Below are positions 2,879 to 62,920 of a DNA stretch of 64,000 bases, in pieces. The stretch comes from Candidatus Methanophagales archaeon (GTDB lineage Archaea; Halobacteriota; Syntropharchaeia; Alkanophagales; Methanospirareceae): contig JAPDIG010000001.1 of assembly GCA_025966525.1 (NCBI GenBank), positions 13,435 to 77,434 of the forward strand, in the 5' to 3' direction. Under the pieces are notes generated by a model, which saw only the letters and a program-made list of their open reading frames with translations, ran no database searches and was not told the DNA's origin. Position 1 is the stretch's first letter, and the number at the start of each line of letters is the position of its first letter. The position numbers and the translations under genes are program-made.

Positions 2879-3670
2879 TTACTCTCCTTTTAATTGTCTC
2901 TCTACCAGCATCTCAAACTTCTCCTTTTTCCTTTTTAAGTATATGTTTTTGCAATATCCACTATATATATACCTACATAGTGAAATCGAATCTCTCGTCC
3001 CAAACTTTAATAGCCATGTGTTTTTGTGTTTATGAATGCTTCCACCTTTAATTACTCCTTCATCACGTAATGTCTGTAATATATAATCAAGTATTTCATA
3101 ATCGTTCTGTCCAATACTTGCGTGAATCGAACCTCCTCGCGAATTATGATTTTCCTTATGCCAGTAAACGCTGCCTTCTGCTTCAAAAAAGCCTCTGAGC
3201 CAGTATTTGAAATATTGCCGTGGTACATCGCGATAATGTAGTCTTTTCAAATCTTTAACAAGTGTAATGGAATTAAACTGAATTCTTGACATTTCATGCC
3301 CATGAGACAAAAAATCATATACAGGATGTTCGGAATCTAATACATCTCTAAACTTAAACAATACTTCCTTATCAATTGCTGATAACCGAAAATGTAAATA
3401 ATCTTTACGTGTGAAATTACCATCTCCAATTGCCCATCCATACAACCAAGCACTCTCTGGTGTCCATGATTTAAAAAAGTCGTGATTGATGGAATATTGC
3501 CTTTTTACTTCACTGCTTAACCGAGGCTTGATATTATATTCTTTCATACGCTCCTGTATAGTTCTATGTGAAACTCCATAATAACTTGCTATCTCTCTCT
3601 CTGTCATCCCTTCTACATCATACATCCTACGCAAGTCATCTTCATCTATTCCTTCTATTCTTCTTCCCAT
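2879..3670 (-). CDS. LAGLIDADG-type homing-endonuclease-like protein with N-terminal HTH
   Basis: Two dodecapeptide-like motifs, LYGWAIGDGNF and LRGFFEAEGSV. The N-terminus, REIASYYGVSHRTIQERMKEY, is HTH-like. Confidence 0.5.
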   Translation of the reverse strand: MGRRIEGIDEDDLRRMYDVEGMTEREIASYYGVSHRTIQERMKEYNIKPRLSSEVKRQYSINHDFFKSWTPESAWLYGWAIGDGNFTRKDYLHFRLSAIDKEVLFKFRDVLDSEHPVYDFLSHGHEMSRIQFNSITLVKDLKRLHYRDVPRQYFKYWLRGFFEAEGSVYWHKENHNSRGGSIHASIGQNDYEILDYILQTLRDEGVIKGGSIHKHKNTWLLKFGTRDSISLCRYIYSGYCKNIYLKRKKEKFEMLVERQLKGE

Positions 3671-11595: not shown

Positions 11596-11907
11596 TTATG
11601 TTCTGACTAACTCGCCAACCGCACGGTACTTAACGACCAACACTGCACCAGCTCCTATATCCTTATCAGCTTTTTTGAGGTTGAAACTACGAGCTGTGTA
11701 TGCCGATGGCACATCAGGGATATGTGGAGCAGCGCCTACTGTTGAAGCATACAGTATTGCCGGCCCCATGGATGCACTTGTCGTTGTAGGCATCCACGCT
11801 ATATCTGGATATCCAGCAGGTATCACAAACGGACCGCCAGTAGTCGGGGTTAATTTTGCAGTAGTTGCACCTACTTTCGTTGGTACCCGTATATATGCCT
11901 CTTTCAT
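11596..11907 (-). CDS. hypothetical protein (paralogue of 11336..11581)
   Basis: C-terminus shared with the downstream ORF. Gly/Ala/Thr/Pro-rich. Confidence 0.35.
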   Translation of the reverse strand: MKEAYIRVPTKVGATTAKLTPTTGGPFVIPAGYPDIAWMPTTTSASMGPAILYASTVGAAPHIPDVPSAYTARSFNLKKADKDIGAGAVLVVKYRAVGELVRT

Positions 11908-11927
11908 TTTTTATCTCACCTCCTCAC

Positions 11928-13046
11928 TCATGGCAAGTTCACTTTTATGCCCTGTAAGCACGCTATTATCCCCGCCGTCGGTATATTACCGTCATCAGCC
12001 GAGATTGCTGTCCCGTCATCGTATATAACCACTCTGCCCTTCTCGTTGTGTATCAGATACCCCATCGGTAGCAACGGCATTGGCACAAACAGCGGGAAGT
12101 TCTGCGGGAACAGTGGATAGCCGTGCCCGAAATGCAGTGGGTTGTTGTTGTAATCCACCCTGAACAGCTTCTCATCGCCCGCACTTCTCGGATACTCCCT
12201 GTCTCCTATCTTCAGTCCCATATACTTCAGGTGCGTATGCGACCTGACACCTATACCCTTTATGAACAGCGCTTCTGAAGTGCCATAGTCGAAATACAGG
12301 TTCTCCCAGTCGTTCGCTACATCGCCATCGCTATAATTGAAATCGAATGGTGTATTCGCCGTCGTTGCTACTTTGTTGTAAGCGTAGCGAATCATCGGCA
12401 TGATCTCAGGCTTTGACTGCTTCACACCGCCTACAAACATGTCCCAGTTCTTTATGCTCACATCTATCGCATCCTTTGTTACGCTCAGACTCTTACCCCT
12501 GTTGCGGTCCTCAATTGTCGCCTCTGCACCGTACACTGTATCGCCAAACACTGACCTCAGCATCGCCTCGCCCTTATACAAACGCCCCCACACACGTATC
12601 CGATAGTCTTCGGTAATGTCTGAGCTACCCGCAAAAGTCCGTATCGATATTGTCTTCTTCGCCTTCAATGTCGTGTTAAGGAACGGGTCCTCGATACCGG
12701 GCGTACCAAAGCTGAAGACTGCACGAGTCGTTTGCAATGGTGCAGGGCCACTCATCTGGCTTATCCGCGGTGGCGCCATGTTCGATGTGTATCGCCCGGA
12801 CAGGCTAACATACTCCTCGATCGCCGCGCCATCTATCACCGGTATCACCTGCTTGAGGTCTTCTCCCGGCCAGCCCGCATTCGGACTGAATATCTCTATA
12901 TACTCGATCTCTGCAACTTCATCGCTCTCAAGCCGCTTCGCTGTGAAGTCGTATCTATCGCCCGCAGACTGCGTCCCCGTATGCTCGAAATCCGCTAACA
13001 GCGTCGGCTGCAAAAGGTTCCCTACCGCTCCTATCTCTTCTGCCAT
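11928..13046 (-). CDS. hypothetical protein, possibly structural (capsid or envelope-like)
   Basis: 372-aa ORF with a strong AT-rich promoter-like region immediately upstream (13050-13150). No enzymatic motif. Confidence 0.4.
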   Translation of the reverse strand: MAEEIGAVGNLLQPTLLADFEHTGTQSAGDRYDFTAKRLESDEVAEIEYIEIFSPNAGWPGEDLKQVIPVIDGAAIEEYVSLSGRYTSNMAPPRISQMSGPAPLQTTRAVFSFGTPGIEDPFLNTTLKAKKTISIRTFAGSSDITEDYRIRVWGRLYKGEAMLRSVFGDTVYGAEATIEDRNRGKSLSVTKDAIDVSIKNWDMFVGGVKQSKPEIMPMIRYAYNKVATTANTPFDFNYSDGDVANDWENLYFDYGTSEALFIKGIGVRSHTHLKYMGLKIGDREYPRSAGDEKLFRVDYNNNPLHFGHGYPLFPQNFPLFVPMPLLPMGYLIHNEKGRVVIYDDGTAISADDGNIPTAGIIACLQGIKVNLP

Positions 13047-13189
13047 TTTCTATTTGCATCACCTCAGTTATCACTTTTAAGTCTATATATAAATACCCTA
13101 TCACCTATATACAGTATATAGAGCATATAGTAAATATGGATGTGGAGTAAATACTTTAAATAGTATATTGCTTATTATTATACGATGAG

Positions 13190-13366
13190 GGATGAGGCGC
13201 GCGAGGAGCGAGGGCGATACGAAGCATATCACTCTGGATAGAAACTCATATTACAAACTATTAGAACTAAAAGGCCGATTAAAAGCCGCTACATGGGCAG
13301 AACTCGTGGATAAACTAGTAAGTATGACTGAAGAATACGAGCGAAGGCGCTATAAACCCGTGTATT
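13190..13366 (+). CDS. Small ribbon-helix-helix-like protein (below ORF-track cutoff)
   Basis: Translation MRRARSEGDTKHITLDRNSYYKLLELKGRLKAATWAELVDKLVSMTEEYERRRYKPVY. The beta-strand then two-helix pattern is typical of CopG/Arc folds. Confidence 0.3.
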
Positions 13367-13370
13367 GACT

Positions 13371-13889
13371 TTAATACACAGGCGGGTACTTCTTCGCGCT
13401 CGACTTTGACTTACTACTATTTCCAGCCTCGTTCACTTCCAGCTCTTTCGCTTTATCTAGCACTGACTTCTTCGCTGGTCCCAAAGTCTTCATACCTACA
13501 CTGCCGTTACCCTTATTCTCGCTCGATATGGCATTACTCACTGGCTCGCCAAGCAGGTCTAACATGCCCGCCCGTGACGCCAGTAACAAGGTCTCGCCAA
13601 GCTTACCCTCCTGCTGCTCGCTCAGCCGGTCAAGTGCTAATGCCGCTATCAGCCTCGCACGCTGCGCAGGGTCCATCTTCGCTATCTTCGCCGCAAGATT
13701 GTTTAGTATACGCTGCCCCAACGGACGATAAACCATGACATCGAGCACATCGCTACTGAGCCCGCCTTCACTATCACTATCTCCGCTCTTCTTGGATAGC
13801 TGCATGAGCACTATCGGCAGTATGTTATCCGAGTTCGCGCCTACGCCTCCGCCGAGCATGCTCATGTATAATAACGATTGCGCATCCAT
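13371..13889 (-). CDS. hypothetical protein
   Basis: 172-aa ORF with a Lys/Ser-rich C-terminus. Confidence 0.35.
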   Translation of the reverse strand: MDAQSLLYMSMLGGGVGANSDNILPIVLMQLSKKSGDSDSEGGLSSDVLDVMVYRPLGQRILNNLAAKIAKMDPAQRARLIAALALDRLSEQQEGKLGETLLLASRAGMLDLLGEPVSNAISSENKGNGSVGMKTLGPAKKSVLDKAKELEVNEAGNSSKSKSSAKKYPPVY

Positions 13890-13973
13890 GTTTTGTTATT
13901 AGGTGTGTATATATAAAAAGGTTTAGATTTAAATGCATCTTGTAGAATGCTTCTCCGTTAGAGAGGGAGAACA

Positions 13974-14330
13974 TCAGACCCTTCTAAGCGTAACAGGTCT
14001 TACTACCCCGCCCGGATAGCATTCTATGATGCAGATATACTCGCCAGCTCTCGCCTTCTCGGGTATTTTTATCGCTTCGCGACGGCGTACGCATGTCCCT
14101 GCTCTAATACCCGGTACTTTTTCTGTAATTGGCGGGATGTATGTCGGTCCCTTAAAGGTCTTTCGTATCTCCGCATCTAACACTCCACCACCAACATTGC
14201 ACACATCGAAGACGATGTAAACAGTTTCCCCTGGTTTTACGGTCGCAGGCTCTGCATGTGCATTCCTGATGTCACATTTTGGTAATGCCTCTTCTACTCT
14301 AAATCTTACTTCTTCCTTTTCTTCTGCCAT
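13974..14330 (-). CDS. hypothetical protein
   Basis: 118-aa ORF preceded by an AT-rich promoter-like sequence. Confidence 0.35.
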   Translation of the reverse strand: MAEEKEEVRFRVEEALPKCDIRNAHAEPATVKPGETVYIVFDVCNVGGGVLDAEIRKTFKGPTYIPPITEKVPGIRAGTCVRRREAIKIPEKARAGEYICIIECYPGGVVRPVTLRRV

Positions 14331-14383
14331 CTTATCTTGCCTCCATATTAATTATTGCTGATGCGCATATAAAAAGATTTGCC

Positions 14384-14780
14384 TGAGGCATGACGGGGAG
14401 GTGTAGAACAGTGGAGTGGAAATTCGAGTGGTTGCCTCAACTGTTTGCCCCGCCATGCCTAATATTTTTATAGATTTATAGCAGAAGACACACCTCTTGA
14501 CGGTGTGATGAATGCGCTCCTTCACATCACATTAAACTATTTAAATAGTAAGATAATATATAATATTACCCGGCCGTGCCGGGTAGCCGAGGGAGAGGGG
14601 GAGATGCGAGCGAAGTGCAACAACCGCGTGAAACCGCTTCAGAAGGCAGGTACCTATCTGAAGGGTAAGCCCAGCGAGAAGCTGGCGGGGGCGATAGATG
14701 AACTCGCCCGAACCATCGATGATTCCGGGCTGGAACCCTGGATGAAGATGGAAACTCACCTGCTTGTAGGTGAGTAGTTC
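14384..14780 (+). mobile_element. Miniature non-autonomous IS200/IS605-type element (MITE-like) retaining the LE hairpin plus the tnpB 3' end / omega-RNA region and the RE hairpin
   Basis: LE matches the full IS at 18.5-20.16 kb (cagaagacacacctcttgacggtgtgatgaatgcgc, with an upstream long hairpin aggcatgacgggg...ccccgccatgcct). The internal 270 bp is near-identical to the 3' end of tnpB at 18512. It ends ...cacctgcttgtaggtgagtagttca at 14780. Confidence 0.7.
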
Positions 14781-14915
14781 ATTCTCCAACACAACCATCC
14801 CCCACTGTACACAATCAAATGTGGAGATAAAACGAAGAAGCGGTATAGTATAAAGCTAGCAGTTGCAGATTACGAATTTGCTAAAAGTTTCGCAAGTGCA
14901 CTAAGGAAAATAGGT

Positions 14916-15365
14916 TTGCATCCCCATACATGGAAAGAGAAAAATGTAAGGAAGGGGAGAGAAAACGAACAAAAACTGTGGCATACCGAAGCGAATAGTA
15001 AAACTTTCGTCCGTTTTTTCTTATCGTTAAAAGATGACTGGAATGAGTTTGAAAAGTTCGTTAGAAGCTGTCCGAAAGGAAAAGAAATGTTCTTGCGAGG
15101 GTTCTATGAAAGTGAGGGACACCATGGAGTGTATGTTTATCGGAATAGTAAAGGAATTCGACGCGTTAGAGAGCTGCATTTCACTAATACTAACCCTCAC
15201 TTAGTTAAAATAACAATATCGTTTCTGCGCGAATTGGCATTCCATCCCTATACTTCTATCGAAAAGCGAAGACAGCTCGGCTGGAAAGATTGCATAACTA
15301 TCCGTCTCCCACCAAGAGAGCACAGGAGATTCCTCGCTCTTATATCACCAGTTATCAAAAAATAA
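14916..15365 (+). CDS. LAGLIDADG-like protein. The frame is open back to 14778, immediately after the MITE, so the 5' region may be disrupted
   Basis: FLRGFYESEGHH is paralogous to LRGFFEAEGSV in the 2879..3670 gene. The in-frame upstream extension RYSIKLAVADYEFAKSF abuts the MITE right end. Confidence 0.35.
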   Translation: MHPHTWKEKNVRKGRENEQKLWHTEANSKTFVRFFLSLKDDWNEFEKFVRSCPKGKEMFLRGFYESEGHHGVYVYRNSKGIRRVRELHFTNTNPHLVKITISFLRELAFHPYTSIEKRRQLGWKDCITIRLPPREHRRFLALISPVIKK

Positions 15366-16196
15366 AAGAAAAGAGGGAAAAAATCCGGTTTTTAAGCCCG
15401 CTCAAGCCGCACGCCGGCTATACGCTCCGCCACGCGTTGCTAATACGCGTATAGCGCACTCTCGTGCCGCTGTTAGCCTTCTCTCCCGCTCAGCGTCGTC
15501 ACATGCTACATATTTCTTACCAGGTGCGCCCGGCACGGGCATACCTATCGCAGCTTCCGACATACCTCGCGGGAGGCACTTGTCCGGCAGTGAGCAGTTC
15601 GCCCTCATGTTCGCCGCTGTCCACTTCGTCCTCGCTATGAGACCGGGACTGGACACGATGTTCTTCGCTCGCCTCGTGTACTTACCCATAGCGACACCGC
15701 CGCCAGGCTGTAGCATGCGGCTATTCACGACCGTCTTCTGTGTGAAGTCCGCCAGAGTCAAATATGTCATCTTTTGCCACTCACCTCCTTTTGTATTCTA
15801 TATTTCAATTATAAATCGCTATTATATAAAAATAACCACTCACAAGGTGTGGATTGATAATTAATAGGCTAATAGAAGGGATAGTGGCGATACTAAAAGT
15901 TTATATAACATATTACTACAACCTTTATATAAGAGGGTGTATAGAAAATGGAAGAAAAGAGTGAAAGGGCGACTTTGAGCTCGAGTGTGAAGAAACAGAA
16001 GGTGGAGCTGGACATACACGCGGTTGGGATATTGAACGAAGTGCGTGACAGGATAAAGAGCGAAGGCAAGAGCGGGATAACATATTCAGACGCGATAAGG
16101 TGGCTTGCGGTGAAAGCGGGCGTGCGTGAGGGCACGATGTAGCGGCGCCAAACAAGAAGGTTTTTATAACATAACCACCAATGTAGAATTAATTGG

Positions 16197-16571
16197 ATGG
16201 CGACGGACATCGAGCTGACTTTAGGCGAGCATACGGTAAAGTGGTCGAAGACGGGTTATGAAGACCTGATAGCGAAAATAAATGTAACTGATACGGGCGT
16301 CTCATGTGTCAGTGTTGATGTTCCGGGTGGTGCATGTGGCAGCAGTACGCCCCCGGGTGTGGTTATTTCAGACTTCACAGTGACGGGATACTTGAAGGAG
16401 ATAATTAAGAATTTCGATAGTTGGGTAACGAGTAAGGGTGGAAAGGATAGCATTAAATATGCAGATGTTCTTGAGATAGGAGATGCGTACTTAGGGATTG
16501 TAGATATAGGATTTACGCCTACTTATGACAATGTATTGACTGCGGGAGATTATTATCTTGGGTTAGGGTAA
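16197..16571 (+). CDS. hypothetical protein
   Basis: 124-aa ORF co-oriented with 16629..17858. Confidence 0.35.
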   Translation: MATDIELTLGEHTVKWSKTGYEDLIAKINVTDTGVSCVSVDVPGGACGSSTPPGVVISDFTVTGYLKEIIKNFDSWVTSKGGKDSIKYADVLEIGDAYLGIVDIGFTPTYDNVLTAGDYYLGLG

Positions 16572-16628
16572 AATGGCAAAAATTCAAATATACAGGGGGT
16601 ATAATCAAATATAGGGAGCGGGAATAGG

Positions 16629-18506: not shown

Positions 18507-20160
18507 GTGAACTACCCACCTACAAGTAGGTGGGCTTCCATCTTCATCCAAGGTTCCAGCCCGGAATCATCGATGGTTCGGGCGAGTTCATCTATCGCCC
18601 CCGCCAGCTTCCGACTCCGCTTCAGAGCCGCTCTGGTCTTGTGCTTCAGATAGGTACTTGCCTTCTGAACCACTCTCACACAGGAGTTGAATTCCCGGTC
18701 GTATTGCATACCGCAGTTCGTGCACACCACGCGCCTGCCTTTCGCCTTTAATTTACCGCCACATTTGTGACATTCGCTTGAGGTGCCCCATTCGTTGAAC
18801 CGTATACCGATTATACCCCGCTCCTTTAACTTCTCTATTATGGTGTCCGCCAGCCTGCTGTAGCTCCAGTGCTGTAATATCTTCCTGCCTCGTTTATCGC
18901 CGTCGCCGCGATACTTGTGGTATCGTATCTGTTGCGGGTCGCCAATGACCACTATCTCATTCTCCGTCCCTGCGGCAAACTCTTTCGCGAGCTTACGGTC
19001 GTAATCTTCCGCCACATGCCTTCGCTTGTGCCTCAGCTTCTTCAATACGTTCCACTTCCTCAATCTTTGCAGGTGCGCTATGCGGTCATCCAACTCCCGG
19101 ATCCTCAACCACTTATCGTCGTATCGCAGCAGAGAGAAGTTTCGCGGGTGCTTCGGTAGCTTCACGGAAGCTATCGCACGTCTAACACCCAAGTCCACTC
19201 CTCTTACTGCGTGAACTGGTTGAGCGCGAACAAAATATTTACAGAGCAGATGCACGAAATACTTCTTACCGCGTTTGATTAGTTCAAACCCGCGCAGTTC
19301 CGCCGCACGCGCGAGCATTTCAAGATGCCATTTTGAGGGGTTGAGCAGTATTGTCAGCTTCTCACCCCTTTTTAAGGTTGAGATACGTATGACCAGTGGT
19401 GAGATTTTCAGATTTGATACCTCAATCGTGCCGGTTCGCGTGTCAAATCGCGTGGGTATCTTCTTCAAACTGCTCTTAGGTGATGTGCACGGCTCCGCCG
19501 GCTCACGCTTCAATAACTTCTTATACCACTTCGTGCCGGGTTTCGCGCGGCTCAGTTCACGCTCCCAGTCCTTATGCGCCTCACGATACTGCGCCCACAT
19601 CCATAGCGCCTTGTCTCGCGCCTGCTGTACGAACGCGGCACTCAACCCCGTGATGTGCTGTATCTCGCGCTCGTAAGGCGAGCAGTCCCGCTGAGTTTTC
19701 AGCCCCAGTTCGGATATGCGCTCGCACCACACCCGGACGGCGTAAGTCAGCCGCGCGGTGAGCCTGTCGAGATAGCTGAGCTTCTTGCCAGTGGTGGCGT
19801 AGTGCACCGGAATTTTGAGTGCGCGCAGGAGCTCGAAGAGTATCTTCTCCCCCGCTTCTTCCATCACCTGCACGGTTGGCTCGCCCACGACACCTGAGCA
19901 GCAATATTTTCCTCTCATGGCGACGTATATTTAATATATATTTTAGTATTTAAATATTTAATGTTGGGTATGGAGCACGAATTGACCTCTCATGGCGACT
20001 CCTCCATACCCAACCACGCTATTAAAGTATCATGCTCGATGACTGAGGCGCATTCATCACACCGTCAAGAGGTGTGTCTTCTGCGCTTTAAATCTATAAA
20101 TATTAAAATTGGTATGGCGGTTGCGAATTTAAGCATCTACACACACCCTGCCATACCATA
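18507..20160 (-). mobile_element. IS200/IS605-family insertion sequence, tnpB-only (IS1341-like); no tnpA present
   Basis: RE is ...gatggaagcccacctacttgtaggtgggtagttca at 18507-18540. LE has the hairpin cacaccgtcaagaggtgtg at about 20070-20100 and a long hairpin ggtatggc...gccatacc at 20111-20157. A single tnpB gene lies between them. Confidence 0.7.
18512..19918 (-). CDS. tnpB: TnpB (IS200/IS605 OrfB; RuvC-like RNA-guided nuclease family)
   Basis: RuvC-I-like GVDLGV, zinc finger CHKCGG...CTNCG, and a RuvC-III-like YDREFNS. Its 3' end lies inside the RE. Confidence 0.8.
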   Translation of the reverse strand: MRGKYCCSGVVGEPTVQVMEEAGEKILFELLRALKIPVHYATTGKKLSYLDRLTARLTYAVRVWCERISELGLKTQRDCSPYEREIQHITGLSAAFVQQARDKALWMWAQYREAHKDWERELSRAKPGTKWYKKLLKREPAEPCTSPKSSLKKIPTRFDTRTGTIEVSNLKISPLVIRISTLKRGEKLTILLNPSKWHLEMLARAAELRGFELIKRGKKYFVHLLCKYFVRAQPVHAVRGVDLGVRRAIASVKLPKHPRNFSLLRYDDKWLRIRELDDRIAHLQRLRKWNVLKKLRHKRRHVAEDYDRKLAKEFAAGTENEIVVIGDPQQIRYHKYRGDGDKRGRKILQHWSYSRLADTIIEKLKERGIIGIRFNEWGTSSECHKCGGKLKAKGRRVVCTNCGMQYDREFNSCVRVVQKASTYLKHKTRAALKRSRKLAGAIDELARTIDDSGLEPWMKMEAHLLVGG

Positions 20161-36129: not shown

Positions 36130-37500
36130 GAACTACCCATCAATGAATTGATGGGCATCTGATTCATGAAGGGACGACATCCTTCGCCCTCCATGTCAGC
36201 GGTGCGTCCACAACACCAATACTCCTCGAGATATTCCTCTCTTGGAGATACTTCTTCAGTATGTTCAGCGCCGCATTCACATCCGCATTCAGCTCCGCTC
36301 CACAGCTTTTGCATACATACAGACCTCTATACTTGCGGTTCGCTCTCCTCACGGCGCCGCAAACCGAACAGGTCTTACTCGTGTCTCGCTCACTGACTTT
36401 TTCAAATCGTATGCCAGATAGTTTCGCTTTGTATTCTATCTGCGTCAGGAGCTTAGCAAAAGCCCACGCGTGGAGCTTCTGGTTGCCTCGCCTCCCACAG
36501 TTCTTACCTCGCCTTATGTTCTTCACATCACCACATACTATTGTCCCCACATTATTCCTCTTTGCTTCTTCTACCACTTCCTTTGATACCATGTGGATAA
36601 TCTGGTTAATTTGTCTTCTTTTTCTTTTATGCATGTTCGTAATTGCTTTGCTTCCTCTTTTATTATATTGCTTCATCGTTTTTGATTGCACCTTCGCTAT
36701 CTCTTTATTGAAATAATGCTGAACCGCGAGAGCCAACCTGCCGGAATATATGGTTGAATTCCCTTTTGTATCCACTGTAACGGCAAGATTTATTATCCCT
36801 ATATCCACAGCCATTATCTCAGGACTATCTTTCAGCGGCACTTCCGGTATCTCATACACCACATGTGCCATCCATTTCCCACTCTCATAAAGGATATTGC
36901 ACATCTTCGGGATACCTTCTATCTCACGCCAGTTATTGATCTTCAGATGGAGTTTATCCACCCCCTCTTCCGCTCTGAATTTCCTCGACATTACGAGCGT
37001 GATTGTATCTCCCTCTATTGAGAACTGTTGATAAAATGTGAGAGGACTTAGCTTATTCTTCTTTCGGAAACCGGGTGGTTTCGCATTCGGGTCTTCTTTC
37101 CGCAAGTGGAACCATGAATTATAATTATCTTGCAAGTTCTTGATAATCGCCTGCGCCGTCTGAGAAGGTAAGAGTTTATACCAGTGGTTGTCCTTCAGTT
37201 TCTTCTTTTGCTCGTACCAGTCGGGTATTTTACCGGTCTGTGCCCATATCTCTCGCCTTTGCCAGTTATCGGTATTATACAATTTCGTCGCATAATAACC
37301 AAGCTTCCTCAGTAACTTCTCTTGCTCATCTGTTACTTCAATCCGATACTTTACTGTTAGTTTCATCTCTGCGCCACACTATTTATTTATATGTTTTTAT
37401 TATATAAAAAGTTTTAAGGTATAGGTGGGGAGAGATTTAATCATCTCTGCGCCACCCCCACCTATACCCGCACCCCGCCCTAAAGGGCGGTGGGGATGTC
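36130..37500 (-). mobile_element. Second IS200/IS605-family tnpB-only element (diverged from the first)
   Basis: RE gtgaactacccatcaatgaattgatgggcatc at 36126-36160 has the same tgaactaccca-plus-palindrome organisation. LE-side hairpins ggtataggtgggg...ccccacctatacc and ccgccctaaagggcgg lie at 37420-37500. Confidence 0.55.
36164..37366 (-). CDS. tnpB: TnpB (IS200/IS605 OrfB family)
   Basis: VDIGIINLAV (RuvC-I), zinc finger CSVCG...CKSCG, and DVNAALNI (RuvC-III). Confidence 0.75.
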   Translation of the reverse strand: MKLTVKYRIEVTDEQEKLLRKLGYYATKLYNTDNWQRREIWAQTGKIPDWYEQKKKLKDNHWYKLLPSQTAQAIIKNLQDNYNSWFHLRKEDPNAKPPGFRKKNKLSPLTFYQQFSIEGDTITLVMSRKFRAEEGVDKLHLKINNWREIEGIPKMCNILYESGKWMAHVVYEIPEVPLKDSPEIMAVDIGIINLAVTVDTKGNSTIYSGRLALAVQHYFNKEIAKVQSKTMKQYNKRGSKAITNMHKRKRRQINQIIHMVSKEVVEEAKRNNVGTIVCGDVKNIRRGKNCGRRGNQKLHAWAFAKLLTQIEYKAKLSGIRFEKVSERDTSKTCSVCGAVRRANRKYRGLYVCKSCGAELNADVNAALNILKKYLQERNISRSIGVVDAPLTWRAKDVVPS

Positions 37501-48831: not shown

Positions 48832-49962
48832 TTACGGGCTGGAAGCCTCACCCTTCAGGGCGAGGAGGGAAGCCCGCATCGCAATATTCCTCGCAGCATT
48901 TAAGTCCCTATCCAGCTGAAATCCACATTTCGGGCATTTAAACCATCTACCATTAACCCTGCTCCTAGTGTAACCACATCTTGAGCAAGTCCTTGATGTG
49001 CTCCTCGGATTCACAAACTTAACAGGAACTCCGTTTAGTTTTGCTTTATATTCAATCTTCGAGATTAAGTCACGGTAAGCCCATTTATGGAGTCTTTTCC
49101 GGTGTCTCCTACCAACCTTTCTCCTTCTTAGCCCTTTTAAGCTTTCTATTGCTATCCCTGACCTCCTATGCTTCGCTAGTTTAACAAGCTCCTTCGCAAT
49201 ACTATGATTGATATAACTCATCTTGCTTCGATTCTTGTGCGAAAGCCTTTTAAGAACCCGCCACGCACCCTTATTGGTTTCTGTATCTTTCGCTTGCTGC
49301 ATATCCGCTCTTTTTAACTCTACTCTTTTTTTCCAGCTTATCGCATTATCATAGAACTTATTGATCTTACCCTCCATATCTGAGATAACTATGATATGAT
49401 TAATACCTATATCTACGCCTATCCACCCCTTCGGCTCGTAAGGTTCAGGCTCCTCAACCTCAGCACTTATAAACACATAATAGTCTTTCTTGATATGCGA
49501 AATCTGAACTCTCCTATGGGTGAGTTTAAGAAAGTGCTTTAGTTTAGGTGGAACATGCATTGGCAACCACACTCTTCGCCCGTTTAGTAATGGCACATTA
49601 ATGAAATGCCCCTCGATCTTGACATTTACCGCTTTGAAACTGACTATTTCCGCTTTAAAGATAGGTTTCTCGCCTTTTTTAGGATTTCTGAGCCAAGCCC
49701 TATAGGTTTCAATAGCCCTATTCATCGCTTCTTGTACAACATCTGAATTTAAGTCCTTGAATTTCTCTCTAACCCTTTTGTAAGCAAAAGCATGGATGTT
49801 CCCTCTTGTCGGATATTCTCCCAAATCTTCTATCGCTCTAAGCCAATCATTAGCACATTTTTTGAACCTGTTGATGGTTGCATCTAAGGACTCCCTCTTC
49901 GCCCTGTTCAACCTCATCAATTTGAACTTTTGTGTGAGTTTCATATTATACACTATGACCAT
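48832..49962 (-). CDS. tnpB: TnpB (IS200/IS605 OrfB family), third and diverged copy
   Basis: WIGVDIGINH (RuvC-I), CSRCG...CPKCG zinc finger, and DRDLNAARNI (RuvC-III). Confidence 0.7.
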   Translation of the reverse strand: MVIVYNMKLTQKFKLMRLNRAKRESLDATINRFKKCANDWLRAIEDLGEYPTRGNIHAFAYKRVREKFKDLNSDVVQEAMNRAIETYRAWLRNPKKGEKPIFKAEIVSFKAVNVKIEGHFINVPLLNGRRVWLPMHVPPKLKHFLKLTHRRVQISHIKKDYYVFISAEVEEPEPYEPKGWIGVDIGINHIIVISDMEGKINKFYDNAISWKKRVELKRADMQQAKDTETNKGAWRVLKRLSHKNRSKMSYINHSIAKELVKLAKHRRSGIAIESLKGLRRRKVGRRHRKRLHKWAYRDLISKIEYKAKLNGVPVKFVNPRSTSRTCSRCGYTRSRVNGRWFKCPKCGFQLDRDLNAARNIAMRASLLALKGEASSP

Positions 49963-50201
49963 AATGGTATATAAATATTTATATAGACATGAAGCATATC
50001 ATTAAGTGATGATGCTTTGGGGCATGCCCCGGGGCGGATGGGCGCCTGACCCGCCCAGATGCGGTCTACCGCAACCGAAGTTCCCATGTTGGGAACCTCC
50101 CTGCTTTAGCGGGGAGAGGAGGTCAGCGTTTATTATCTGCCGATGTAACTCCAGTTCGTTTTTCGCACCCACATAACCCATTGAATTTATAAAATAGTCG
50201 C

Positions 50202-52664
50202 TCATTGATGCACCTCCTGATTATTCTCACTATGCTCTCGCGCTATCTCTTCCGCACATGCCGAGCAAACAAGATGCTTCTTACCCTCATGCAACCACTC
50301 ATGATCCAACCATGTCTTCTTACCACAGCGTTCGCATGTACCCTCTGTTACCTCTGAATGGAAGCCTATTACATCTTGCTCACTCGGCTGCTCGTTACTG
50401 CCACTTGACTTTTCCTTCTTTATATTGCCTTCCTCATCTAAATCCTTTATATTCACATATCTTGTCTTCTTCTCCTTCATGTCCTCTTCTTGCTCCTCCT
50501 TTTTGTCGCCAATCTCTTTTCCAAATTCAAGTATGTTTTGTTCTTCTTCTTTCTTCTTAATGAGCATTCCCTCCCAGCACCATACTCTCTTTCCTCCTAT
50601 TGTCTTTCGTCCAGTCTTCACCGGAGCATATCCTTGCAATAACGATCCAAACCTTCCTTTTGAGACAACAGGAAGTCTATTATCCTTGCAGTAAGTAACG
50701 AATGCACTGTAAGTCTCGTCTTTCGTTACATAGCCCTTAGGATCCACCACTACCATATCATGCACAAACGCAAGCACCGGATTTGACTTCCTAATATAGT
50801 CCTCCATTATCTCTTCCGCTACTTTCGAATTTGAAAAATCACGCTTTGTAAGTAAATTCTTAAGATGCTCTAAGACAAGATTGAAGAACCCCGAAAGCTC
50901 TTGTGATGTGGTCAGCTTTTCTAAGATGTTCGGGTCACGCTTCTCGCCTTCAAACCGATTCGGAAAGTTCACAAGTATCCACCGTCTAAAGAAAGCAATG
51001 GTAGTATCAGACGCCATCGGAAGCTGGTTCGCACTGAAAATTAACTTCGCTGTTGGAAGAAACTCGAAATGGTCTTTAAACTTTTTCTCCGCTGAAATTG
51101 TATCCCCCCCTGTTAGCATCTTGAAAAATCCTGTCTTCCTAATAGCTGAAGCTGGTAAATCTGATGACAAATTTGCTAACTTACCATACAAAGATGCTGA
51201 AGCGAATCTGTTTTCCGTAAGTTCCTGTAACGGAATCGCTGCAGTATTCTCTCGCCCTAAAAAAGCTCTTATAAGCTCTATCATCGTGCTCTTACCATTA
51301 CTGCCTTCTCCAAGAAGCATTACTGCCTTCTGCATCTTCTGCTCCGGTATCATGCAATAGCCTACAAACTCTAACACTGGAGGAATATCGTCCGGGTGTA
51401 AGACTTCACTCAAAAACTTCTCTATCTTTTCGCATTTCGCTGATTTGTTATATTCCACAGGCAGGCAGTAGGTAAAGTAGTACTCAGGCGCTAATGGTAA
51501 TAATTGGCCTGTCTCAAGGTCATATACCCCATTCAATAGAGGTATCTTCCGTTTCTCTCGATTTAGAAGTGAACGCTCAACATATGTGCTACGCTGGATA
51601 TATGCTATCACTTCATTCACAAGATGAACGCTTATTCTCTCCTTCTCTAAGTCTTGTAGAGTGCGCTGTAACAGCTCCTTGATCCGTACTTCGCCACCAA
51701 ACTTCCATTTGCGACCGTCCCACCATAAGACCTCCTCAGTATCCCGCAGTGTAATAAAACGATTCCCTTCCATTATCAGCTCCGCAAGCGCGGAATGCGA
51801 AATCCTCTTCTTCTCTTCGTCTCTTTTCAAAAAGCTCACTCCCGTGAGCTCCTCAATCTTCCTTACCGCCTCCGTGAAATCCAGACCTTCCTTTTCCTCT
51901 ATGAACGATATGATGTCACCACTTCTGTTGCACCCGAAGCAATACCACGAATTCGTCTGCTCATACACCGTAAATGACGGCTCATGGTCGTTATGGAACG
52001 GGCAAAGCCCCTGCCAGTAATCCCCATATGCCCTCTTCGGCTCTACATACTTCTTTATAATTTCCATTCCCACTCGCTCTTTAAACTCCTCTATCGGCTT
52101 TGATCGCTTTGATTTCAACGCTACTATTCGCCCCTTCTCTTCAATTTTGTCCAATCCGTGATAGCTCTTCCACCGCTTTTCTATCTCTTCAAATAAACCG
52201 GGCTTCACATGGCGTATCTCCAACGGCGATGTAGCAAAATGCTCGTATTCACGCCCGGTTGGATGCACTGAACCACACATTACCACATACGAACCCTCAC
52301 CTTGAAACCTTAGCTCTTCGCTCCCTTCCCACATTAATGATTTGCGCTTCATTGGCTTGTCCGTGCGCACATAGAGATGATACCCCTTCCCTGTCTTCAC
52401 TGTGAATGTTGCACCTGCAAGTTCGCCCAAGTTCAACTTCGTAAATAATTCTTCTTTGTCTACATCTATCACTACTAAGTTGCCTGATATTGACCCGCAA
52501 ACCGCCCCGTAGTTTCTCGTTCCGTTGTTCTTCCAATACTCTATCTCCTCCTCGGTCGGGTGCCTCTTCATGTATTCTTCCCACTTTATCGCTGGCTTCT
52601 TATCGCGCTCCTTTAGGGGAAAAAAACTTATATTCCAGCTTCTATATATTTTTATCCAGTCCAT
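50202..52664 (-). CDS. Replication protein: fusion of a primase-polymerase (Prim-Pol) domain, a CHC2 zinc finger and an SF3 (D5/P4-alpha-like) helicase
   Basis: LVVIDVDKE plus TGKGYHLY are Prim-Pol motifs. CPFHNDHEPSF...CFGC is a CHC2 finger. Walker A MLLGEGSNGKST. Length 820 aa. Confidence 0.75.
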   Translation of the reverse strand: MDWIKIYRSWNISFFPLKERDKKPAIKWEEYMKRHPTEEEIEYWKNNGTRNYGAVCGSISGNLVVIDVDKEELFTKLNLGELAGATFTVKTGKGYHLYVRTDKPMKRKSLMWEGSEELRFQGEGSYVVMCGSVHPTGREYEHFATSPLEIRHVKPGLFEEIEKRWKSYHGLDKIEEKGRIVALKSKRSKPIEEFKERVGMEIIKKYVEPKRAYGDYWQGLCPFHNDHEPSFTVYEQTNSWYCFGCNRSGDIISFIEEKEGLDFTEAVRKIEELTGVSFLKRDEEKKRISHSALAELIMEGNRFITLRDTEEVLWWDGRKWKFGGEVRIKELLQRTLQDLEKERISVHLVNEVIAYIQRSTYVERSLLNREKRKIPLLNGVYDLETGQLLPLAPEYYFTYCLPVEYNKSAKCEKIEKFLSEVLHPDDIPPVLEFVGYCMIPEQKMQKAVMLLGEGSNGKSTMIELIRAFLGRENTAAIPLQELTENRFASASLYGKLANLSSDLPASAIRKTGFFKMLTGGDTISAEKKFKDHFEFLPTAKLIFSANQLPMASDTTIAFFRRWILVNFPNRFEGEKRDPNILEKLTTSQELSGFFNLVLEHLKNLLTKRDFSNSKVAEEIMEDYIRKSNPVLAFVHDMVVVDPKGYVTKDETYSAFVTYCKDNRLPVVSKGRFGSLLQGYAPVKTGRKTIGGKRVWCWEGMLIKKKEEEQNILEFGKEIGDKKEEQEEDMKEKKTRYVNIKDLDEEGNIKKEKSSGSNEQPSEQDVIGFHSEVTEGTCERCGKKTWLDHEWLHEGKKHLVCSACAEEIAREHSENNQEVHQ

Positions 52665-61720: not shown

Positions 61721-61954
61721 ATGCCAAAATGCCCGAAATGTGGGAAAGAGATAGACTATCTAAGGGATCTCATGTTGGAAGAATTCAAATTGACAGTTGA
61801 CGAGAACGGCTATGTTCATTACGAGCTTGTTGACGCTTCGGTTCTTAATCGTGGCGATGAATATAAATGCCCCAAATGCTCTGCGCTTCTATTCAGAGAT
61901 GAGAAAGAAGCGGTAAAGTTCCTCAGGGGCGAAACATCACAAAAACGAGAGTAG
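61721..61954 (+). CDS. Zinc-ribbon protein
   Basis: MPKCPKCGKEIDY...KCPKCSALLF. Confidence 0.4.
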   Translation: MPKCPKCGKEIDYLRDLMLEEFKLTVDENGYVHYELVDASVLNRGDEYKCPKCSALLFRDEKEAVKFLRGETSQKRE

Positions 61955-62920
61955 CGTGCGCTGGTTGGGATCCCAAGTGCTACTCGTAAGCGGCTTTTCC
62001 ACGCTATCATCACCAACTCCTCGCCTGTTCAGTCTCCTCATCTCCAGATAGTATTCATAAGCTTTGTTTTTTATCCACTGTGAGCGAGTGTGGTTGGTAA
62101 TGCACTTGCGATAGAATTCCATCCCTAAATCCGCCTGTTTCTGTTTGACAATAAGAAATGGCCGCACTTGCTTGAGTATTTTATATGTCTTTTCACCACC
62201 CACGCTCCAAACTTTGAGATCTTTCCAATTTTTTGTTTTATATCTCCTCCATGATGTCCAACCACCATAGTTCGCTTCGAGCCAGTCAATTAGCCGAGTG
62301 TCGGTGTTCGCTATTACCAGTCCGAGAAGATAGGCATAATAATTCTTTGAAGGTTGGCTGGCGTGGTAAATAAAAATCATCCCTTCTGCATCAATGACTG
62401 AAGCGAGATAAATCAATTTTTCCCTCTCGGTTAACTCCAGTATCTCTCGTTTTGTGTGTGATTCACATGCTATGCAACCACTTTTTCCACGAGCATTCAA
62501 TTCATGCATTTTGGCATGGTACGTTTCCTCTCTTGATATTAACCATCTCGGTCTTAATACCCCTTTCTGTTTCAACCTGATACAATTCCGGTAGAAGTCT
62601 ATTGCTAATTCTGCTTGTCGGTCTTTTAATAAAAGATATGGTTGAACATCGCAGATTAACTTATATGCATCTTTGTCATGCAAACGCCACTGCTTTAACG
62701 GCTTGCATGTCGTAGGAGGGTTGCATCCGTTTTTTACTTTACCGCGAAAGTTCCTAATTAGCCACCGTATTATATCAAGATTTGTACTTGATATATCAAG
62801 GTTAAGCTGGTATGCTTTTCGTCCCGCTGATAGATACTGCCGTATGCTAATACAACCGTCACAATCGATATAACCCGCTAAATAGATTAGCTTCTCCCGC
62901 TTATTCATCTCTCCTGTCAT
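61937..62920 (-). CDS. Double-motif LAGLIDADG homing endonuclease (free-standing)
   Basis: Two dodecapeptides, LIYLAGYIDCDGCI and LIYLASVIDAEGMI. Confidence 0.65.
   Translation of the reverse strand: MTGEMNKREKLIYLAGYIDCDGCISIRQYLSAGRKAYQLNLDISSTNLDIIRWLIRNFRGKVKNGCNPPTTCKPLKQWRLHDKDAYKLICDVQPYLLLKDRQAELAIDFYRNCIRLKQKGVLRPRWLISREETYHAKMHELNARGKSGCIACESHTKREILELTEREKLIYLASVIDAEGMIFIYHASQPSKNYYAYLLGLVIANTDTRLIDWLEANYGGWTSWRRYKTKNWKDLKVWSVGGEKTYKILKQVRPFLIVKQKQADLGMEFYRKCITNHTRSQWIKNKAYEYYLEMRRLNRRGVGDDSVEKPLTSSTWDPNQRTLLSFL

Follow-up and report, generated by a model that had tools for sequence, protein, structure and literature searches.

Probable PATEs retaining a tnpB promoter and a predicted omega-RNA scaffold in an ANME-1-associated replicon

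Palindrome-associated transposable elements (PATEs) derived from insertion sequences (ISs) of the IS605/IS1341 type were first defined in Haloquadratum walsbyi, and deletion between short repeats has been described for their formation (PMC3119063). PATEs often encode omega-RNAs (PMC10055086). Here I describe a stretch of 64,000 nucleotides from a Candidatus Methanophagales archaeon (contig JAPDIG010000001.1, positions 13,435 to 77,434 of the forward strand), hereafter referred to as the window, whose own numbering is used throughout. It contains two mini-elements (minis) of ∼310 bp, located 33 kb apart and inverted relative to each other, and a longer, tnpB-only element of the IS200/IS605 family. 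With a probability of roughly 0.77, the minis are PATEs, internal-deletion derivatives of the element at 18507–20098, with its promoter and omega-RNA scaffold retained. A preliminary description of the window had taken them for non-autonomous derivatives of IS200/IS605 in which the ends survive together with the 3′ part of tnpB, where the omega-RNA is encoded, and this core is borne out by a shared deletion junction, precise ends and a conserved fold.

At the sequence level, the minis display every feature by which PATEs are recognised (PMC3119063). As in PATEs, there are no terminal inverted repeats, but near-terminal palindromes at both ends, there is no target duplication, and the elements are too short to encode a transposase. 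The core has been deleted between short repeats, while part of the tnpB C-terminal coding region is retained. Several copies exist, in the window and in related contigs, and a dependence on TnpA and TnpB in trans is presumed. The concept is not new, because these sequence-level features are all present and omega-RNA-encoding PATEs are already in the literature. In contrast to published PATEs, the host context is a replicon associated with the anaerobic methanotrophic archaea of group 1 (ANME-1, Methanophagales). In addition, the predicted tnpB promoter of the mini lineage is fused ∼36 nt upstream of the tnpB 3′ sequence, which places it ∼65 nt upstream of the scaffold, and a perfect GC hairpin has evolved on the 5′ side; such a compact promoter-plus-guide-RNA cassette is a layout unmentioned in the published PATE descriptions compared. 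What is specific to this case is the ANME-1-associated context, the promoter-to-scaffold fusion with its 5′ hairpin, the propagation of the minis in their own right, and the fold obtained for a divergent TnpB clade.

The RNA predicted here also resembles the TnpB omega-RNA (right-end RNA, reRNA) of ISDra2 and ISGst (PMC10055086): it is a structured sense-strand RNA over the tnpB 3′ end, it ends at the right-end (RE) boundary such that the flank becomes the guide, the RE hairpin is its last stem, and synonymous change is suppressed across it. It differs from described omega-RNAs in having no sequence or Rfam match, and its TnpB is a divergent 468-aa archaeal form, with a rearranged RuvC-II and a glutamate in RuvC-III, unlike those of ISDra2 and ISGst. 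The MITEs (miniature transposable elements with inverted repeats) of classical (DDE) ISs are likewise short, non-coding, multi-copy and non-autonomous, with a transposase acting in trans. However, MITEs possess terminal inverted repeats and usually target duplications, and no guide RNA, whereas the minis have neither repeats nor duplications and are inserted next to a fixed motif.

The members of this family in the window, and the motif at their left end (LE), are as follows.

14469–14782, plus strand: mini copy 1 (probable PATE), bounded by the target/LE motif TATAG on the left and by GTAGTTCA(T) at the RE, as set by 13 LE-aligned and 16 RE-aligned copies
47503–47818, minus strand: mini copy 2 (probable PATE), with LE hairpin at 47778–47796, TATA box at 47738–47745, 5′ hairpin at 47702–47716 and scaffold at 47504–47653
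18507–20098, minus strand: full tnpB-only IS (IS1341-type), with LE hairpin at 20058–20076, tnpB coding sequence at 18512–19918 (468 aa) and scaffold at 18508–18675
14467–14473, plus strand: left-boundary motif TTTATAG, containing the candidate target/target-adjacent motif (TAM); TATAG is invariant in 13 of 13 copies, and the flanks upstream of it are unrelated between copies

Repeat finding aligns the two minis over arms of 301 nt (14481–14781, plus strand, and 47504–47804, minus strand) at 98% identity (98.3% by blastn), which agrees with the two oppositely oriented copies reported initially. The 98–99% identity that had been given for all three elements holds between the minis, but not to the full IS, for which it is 95.2% (14-kb copy) and 98.1% (47-kb copy) over the last ∼105 nt only, 77% with an 18-nt deletion over the adjoining ∼57 nt, and 86–94% over the LE block. 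The ends of the minis match those of this IS and of two related loci, L002 and L004. A 37-nt LE block containing the hairpin, GCAGAAGACACACCTCTTGACGGTGTGATGAATGCGC, occurs exactly three times in the window (at 14481, 20048 and 47768), where none is expected by chance, as does the RE hairpin followed by GTAGTTCA (at 14757, 18508 and 47504, again with none expected), and the common right end initially proposed is thus correct. All 16 close copies end in ...GTAGTTCA, the next base being C in 14 of them and T in the 14-kb mini and L038, and the AGTTCAC right end is retained even in relatives at 46–68% amino-acid identity. On the left, similarity starts at (T)(T)TATAG in each of the 13 copies that have an LE, mostly with TT before the invariant TATAG. 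Inspection shows that the left flank is not repeated at the right flank, i.e. there is no target-site duplication. The subterminal palindromes (CACACC/GGTGTG in the LE, C[CT]CACCT/AGGTG[GA]G in the RE) are found in all three window copies and are conserved or covarying in relatives, and the two ends are not inverted repeats of each other.

The compensatory change noticed earlier in the RE hairpin is a true double change: a C-G pair of the IS has become U-A in the 14.4-kb copy, and the pair next to the loop reads A-U versus G-U. The two minis differ at five positions, all within the final ∼30 nt and in this hairpin (14754–14775 versus 47510–47531); the other ∼270 nt are identical. The RE stem of the 47-kb mini is that of the full IS, with a single loop base differing. 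These mosaic differences suggest gene conversion or recombination among family members, rather than point mutation.

Because the similarity between copies does not extend outward beyond (T)(T)TATAG, the elements span 14469–14782, 47503–47818 and 18507–20098. The spans in the preliminary description (14384–14780, 47504–47880 and 18507–20160) overshoot the LE by 85, 62 and 62 nt, respectively. The “long LE hairpins” (∼14391–14460 and ∼20105–20150), whose covariation had been taken as a sign of selection on structure, sit in flanking DNA and were rejected as a part of the element, since the 11 other copies have unrelated flanks, several of them without a stable structure. The two long hairpins (14391–14460, plus strand, and 20105–20150, minus strand) do resemble each other, with CCGCCAT[A/G]CC located 11–13 nt before TATAG and similar 5′ arms, although blastn finds no significant similarity between them beyond the TATAG-proximal bases. 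The 14-kb mini and the full IS also have in common the LE-tip subtype TATAGATTTA[A/T]AGC, from which the 47-kb mini departs although it is nearly identical in other respects, and no further copy of the long hairpin is present within the window. This likeness could result from insertion into another small repeat, or from recombination on the LE side.

Eight further mini copies were identified (in loci L008, L009 and L035–L040), in unrelated metagenome gene contexts, bringing the set to ten; full copies were obtained from L001, L002 and L004. Mini copy 1 illustrates their anatomy.

14489–14507, plus strand: LE subterminal hairpin CACACC-TCTTGAC-GGTGTG, followed by GATGAAT; three exact copies in the window
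14540–14547, plus strand: TATA box TTTAAATA, in an AT-rich stretch ∼21 nt upstream of the 5′ hairpin; inherited from the predicted tnpB promoter
14569–14583, plus strand: perfect GC hairpin CCCGGC-CGU-GCCGGG, from tnpB codons ∼5–11; stem invariant in 10 of 10 minis
14604–14606, plus strand: ATG where the deletion has brought 5′ ...GGAGATG and 3′ ATGC... together, start of a relic 57-codon open reading frame (ORF) at 14604–14778
14632–14781, plus strand: omega-RNA-like scaffold of five helices, the last being the RE hairpin (14754–14775), followed by AGUUCA; 186 bits with the covariance model R1 described below
14783–14802, plus strand: putative guide, the flank directly 3′ of the RE, assigned by position only; no second match in the window

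The minis, which measure 294–331 nt, retain the LE hairpin and the predicted TATA promoter of tnpB, followed by ∼36 nt from the start of the ORF, the final ∼177 nt of tnpB and the RE. The ends and the tnpB 3′ part had been recognised before, but the retained promoter and 5′-ORF remnant were overlooked: the LE hairpin was thought to be joined directly to ∼270 bp of tnpB, whereas ∼60 nt of LE and promoter and the ∼36 nt of 5′ ORF intervene before the tnpB 3′ end. TATAG lies 15 nt from the LE hairpin in the 14-kb copy and 17 nt in the 47-kb copy. The LE stem is kept with differing loops in L009, L036 and L037, and the hairpin with its GATGAAT is also present in distant relatives. In an alignment with the 5′ ends of full copies, the same TATA box precedes the tnpB start codon, and the GC hairpin and the purine-rich linker that follows derive from tnpB codons ∼5–22. 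For example, the L037 mini still has ATTGCTGCTCGGCCGTGCCGGG, versus ATATTGCTGCTCAGGTGTCGTGGGCGAGCC in the window IS, and the L001 full copy has GAGGGAGAGGGAGATGAT where the mini has GAGGGAGAGGGGGAGATGCG. The conserved TATA box points to a promoter, from which transcription of the mini would start near 14568, and the GC hairpin is likely the 5′ end of the predicted transcript. Downstream, the ATG is followed by a variable 21–33 nt and then by 150 nearly invariant nt ending at the RE. Identity among the minis differs between segments, at 87% in the scaffold, 81% in the promoter, 64% in the LE and 53% in the variable linker.

RNAalifold yields the identical five helices for the ten minis alone and for the minis together with full copies, and the single-sequence minimum-energy fold of the mini agrees with these. 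In the 15-sequence alignment, 99.1% of the cells are paired, compared to at most 45.5% in slid controls, and double changes occur in five pairs. From 14 sequences, a covariance model, R1, was built over the last 150 nt (150 positions, 42 pairs). This purpose-built model finds the whole fold in the minis: the two window minis score 186 and 187 bits and the full IS 169.5 bits, within ranges of 171–187 bits for minis and 163–170 bits for full copies. R1 was also run on 14 loci in archaeal metagenome-assembled genomes (MAGs) that encode distant relatives of the TnpB, at 42–68% amino-acid identity and all carrying the 3′ end, and matches the tnpB 3′ end at full length and on the sense strand in every one of these (53–151 bits).

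The fold is conserved and covaries across the TnpB clade. In an alignment of 31 sequences (A8), compensatory changes are found in 32 of the 42 pairs, and 96.4% of the cells are paired, while shuffles reach 77% and slid controls no more than 46%, percentages that are somewhat inflated by the fitting of A8 to R1; none of 500 shuffles reaches the observed values. The number of distinct pair types, a measure harder to inflate, is 82, versus 58 in shuffles. G-U pairs on the sense strand are invariant or common (one position is invariant in 15 of 15 sequences), which fixes the strand and favours RNA over DNA. An 18-nt deletion in eight of the ten minis corresponds exactly to the distal hairpin, or tip, of helix 3, of which a closed stem of 5 bp is left. 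The minis keep the entire five-helix fold. The folded scaffold ends 6–7 nt before the element boundary.

The deletion that gave rise to the minis occurred once and then spread, since all ten share a single internal junction and yet diverge (∼80–98% identity, with up to ∼20% divergence elsewhere) and lie in different contexts. Both sides of this junction contain an ATG (5′, ..GGAGATGAT..; 3′, ..GGTATGCAA..), and it is, to judge from these sequences, a deletion between short ATG-containing repeats. The relic 57-codon ORF has 15 short homologues in metagenomes (41–93 aa), the best of which is on a contig of a Methanophagales (ANME-1) MAG. Exact-pattern DNA scans of metagenome, genome and viral collections gave no further copies, a shorter viral pattern yielding chance matches only. 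Two of the mini-bearing contigs break inside another copy of the same RE (L008:1–127 and L040:1003–1035, minus strand), indicating that the family is multi-copy in the L008 and L040 genomes and fragments their assemblies.

Not all copies have complete ends. In L039 (416–712) the whole LE hairpin is deleted, while the promoter, the 5′ hairpin and the complete scaffold are intact (173.7 bits, with the long helix 3); in L038 and L040 the LE hairpins are degraded and the scaffolds intact, as the scaffold is in all ten copies. On this basis, there is an outside chance that the minis constitute a selfish lineage of guide RNAs only, with a promoter and an omega-RNA between transposon ends, which express themselves and circulate among the mobile elements or viruses of ANME-1, and in which selection retains the RNA module even after transposition competence has been lost. 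If so, some copies would be orphan guide genes that program a resident TnpB, e.g. for homing into related replicons or in inter-element conflict.

It is improbable that the minis are inert wreckage, i.e. deleted tnpB pseudogenes, immobile and functionless, conserved owing to a recent origin. This would be in line with the loss or degradation of the LE hairpin in those three loci and with the lack of a TnpA gene in the window, and core deletions are common in IS605-type elements, where they have been described as an inactivation route (PMC3119063). However, ten copies with one junction, precise ends and a TATAG target in unrelated contexts require spread after the deletion, the divergence is uneven across the segments, and changes in the stems are compensated.

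I also considered that the minis might be a gene for a small protein, a ∼57-aa peptide corresponding to the TnpB C-terminus (ATG at 14604 to TAG at 14778) that might, for example, modulate TnpB. All ten minis have the ATG, which is preceded by a purine-rich, Shine-Dalgarno-like stretch, every indel between it and the scaffold is a multiple of three, the relic ORF is open in all ten, and gene callers have annotated it in 15 metagenome clusters. Against this, tnpB is the origin of both the ATG and the purine run, and the sample was found by a protein search, and is as such biased toward intact ORFs. Variable columns in the minis are spread evenly over the codon positions (8:10:12), and the ratio of non-synonymous to synonymous codon differences is 348:143, as compared to 25:24 in full copies. 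The radical replacement of AIDEL by AAVEP coincides with two compensated pairs of helix 4, and where the stop codon TAG has become CAG, in L037 and L038, the pairing partner is G, such that a G-C pair results. From these observations, the constraint on the 3′ part of the minis is on structure, not on protein, and the small-protein hypothesis, which I regard as very unlikely, was rejected on the codon-position and substitution patterns and the stop-codon loss.

It is equally hard to credit that selection acts at the DNA level only, with an extended RE that TnpA recognises on single-stranded DNA and no guide RNA, even though the last helix is the RE hairpin, which TnpA must recognise, and the LE and RE hairpins are alike (in L037, CACACCTACTTGTAGGTGTG in the LE versus CTCACCTAC..AGGTGAG in the RE). 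The covariation spans 150 nt with five helices, much more than a subterminal hairpin would account for, and the sense-strand G-U pairs would be C-A on the other strand, which is poor in DNA. Furthermore, synonymous change is suppressed over the last ∼60 tnpB codons: among full copies, third-codon-position divergence is 25–37% in the gene body and 9–16% in the last 60 codons, as is expected where a functional RNA would overlap the coding sequence. The layout, finally, is the established one of TnpB omega-RNAs (PMC10055086). An exaptation similar to TldR, with a nuclease-dead TnpB, lost ends and a guide aimed at a host promoter, is not supported, as the ends are intact, the elements are multi-copy, and within the window the guides match their own flank only.

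The reading of the minis as PATEs suggests the following history and mechanism, the later steps of which follow the established IS200/IS605 model (PMC10055086). One ancestral deletion between short ATG-containing repeats would have removed ∼1.2 kb of tnpB, and the ∼36 nt of 5′ ORF left behind would later have been reshaped into the perfect GC hairpin. From the retained promoter, a ∼210-nt omega-RNA could be transcribed that reads into the right flank, with this flank acting as the guide. TnpB from full copies may bind this RNA in trans, the minis thereby supplying it with guides. A Y1 TnpA encoded elsewhere would excise the element, leaving a TAM-adjacent empty site; TnpB would be guided to cut this site, and recombination with an occupied copy would restore the element. 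The mini-element would thus parasitise both TnpA and TnpB.

TATAG, or the overlapping TTTAT, is the candidate TAM. Second matches of the three putative 20-nt guides were not found in the window at up to three mismatches, each guide matching its own flank only; this fits the homing model, with each guide aimed at its own empty site, and there is no sign of other targets. In a search for the empty site, blastn of 11900–16600 against phage records gave no match, and no relatives of the neighbouring 372-aa protein were found in viral contigs. No Y1 TnpA was detected in the window, either with Pfam on 59 ORFs of 85–300 aa or with phmmer using approximate Y1 sequences in six frames, and the same approximate queries did find Y1 genes in related loci. 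In four of these (L047, L050, L051 and L055), Pfam Y1_Tnp directly adjoins tnpB (E-values of 1e-12 to 1e-41), which places the clade in the Y1-mobilised IS200/IS605 family and implies that the window copies would depend on a TnpA elsewhere.

The 468-aa ORF of the full IS (18512–19918, minus strand) matches Pfam Cas12f1-like_TNB (E = 3.6e-12) and NCBIfam TIGR01766 above its cut-off; NCBIfam guided_TnpB is matched with E = 4.8e-22 and 78.8 bits, below the 100-bit cut-off, and distant matches to solved Cas12f/TnpB structures in the PDB are found at ∼E = 4e-6. Relatives share 83–92% amino-acid identity, metagenomic relatives on short contigs 71–92%, and more distant ones are present in many archaeal MAGs. 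The RuvC-I residue D242, E376 and the CxxC..CxxC zinc-finger cysteines are conserved. In RuvC-II, G326 occupies the site of the canonical glutamate, with E376 as the conserved alternative, an arrangement described as a catalytic-site rearrangement for large TnpB clades (Altae-Tran et al., PMC10691335). The RuvC-III position is E409 here and an aspartate in some relatives. The carboxylate triad is plausibly retained; the activity of this TnpB is nonetheless not readable from sequence, because of the glutamate at the RuvC-III position. The window encodes two more tnpB genes (36164–37366 and 48832–49962, both on the minus strand; 400 and 376 aa), which belong to other, more typical TnpB families, one with the canonical RuvC-II glutamate and the other G-D rearranged. 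R1 has no match at either.

Several points weigh against the interpretation of the minis as PATEs that carry an omega-RNA. With no Y1 TnpA in the window, their current mobility cannot be shown. Rfam 15, run on the window and the element, has no family that matches the mini/tnpB 3′ region at gathering thresholds, and matches at E ≤ 10 are at chance level; the omega-RNA label is consequently founded on position and covariation instead of a curated model. Of the ten minis, eight were recovered through their ORF, by protein look-up, which biases the sample toward open reading frames, and the fitting of A8 to R1 has been noted above. The transcription start of the mini, the ends of the RNA and the length of the guide are predictions. 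The scaffolds of the mini and of the resident IS are unlike at the base of helix 1, and helix 3 is truncated in the mini, so recognition by the resident TnpB is not guaranteed, and the nuclease competence of the latter is uncertain, given a RuvC-III glutamate where typical TnpBs have an aspartate.

The surroundings resemble a mobile element, in that genes for a primase-helicase and for endonucleases are close by. The ORF at 14916–15362 (plus strand), which follows the 14-kb mini directly on its downstream side, has a weak match to LAGLIDADG_3 (E = 0.0045, below the cut-off), and genes for HNH-type endonucleases are found at 2879–3670 and 61937–62920; with these, the region is rich in selfish or homing-type genes. 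A full-length match to the Rfam HgcC RNA is located at 50037–50139 (plus strand; E = 2e-11, 60.9 bits where the gathering score is 50). It is flanked by a primase-polymerase/D5-helicase gene (50202–52664, minus strand), whose 3′ end faces it, and by the 5′ end of the tnpB gene at 48832–49962, and lies on the strand opposite to both. A literature search on HgcC returned nothing relevant. The gene at 39297–41012 (minus strand) encodes a Ro60-like RNA-binding protein of 571 aa, in which TROVE and Ro60-type vWA domains are recognised (E ∼1e-12) and for which Rfam reports no Y-RNA-like partner on the window.

The current picture of how such elements work is unchanged by these observations. They yield a covariation-supported omega-RNA secondary structure for an archaeal TnpB clade that is divergent and has its active site rearranged, and a natural minimal scaffold, the 18-nt deletion suggesting that the mini lineage can do without the tip of helix 3. 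The candidate TAM, the scaffold and its structure could guide experiments on this TnpB clade. The minis would be a natural example of the modularity of TnpA, TnpB and omega-RNA, in which ends, promoter and guide scaffold are combined in ∼310 bp, and of a mini lineage that has spread beside its parent IS in an uncultured methane-oxidising archaeal community.

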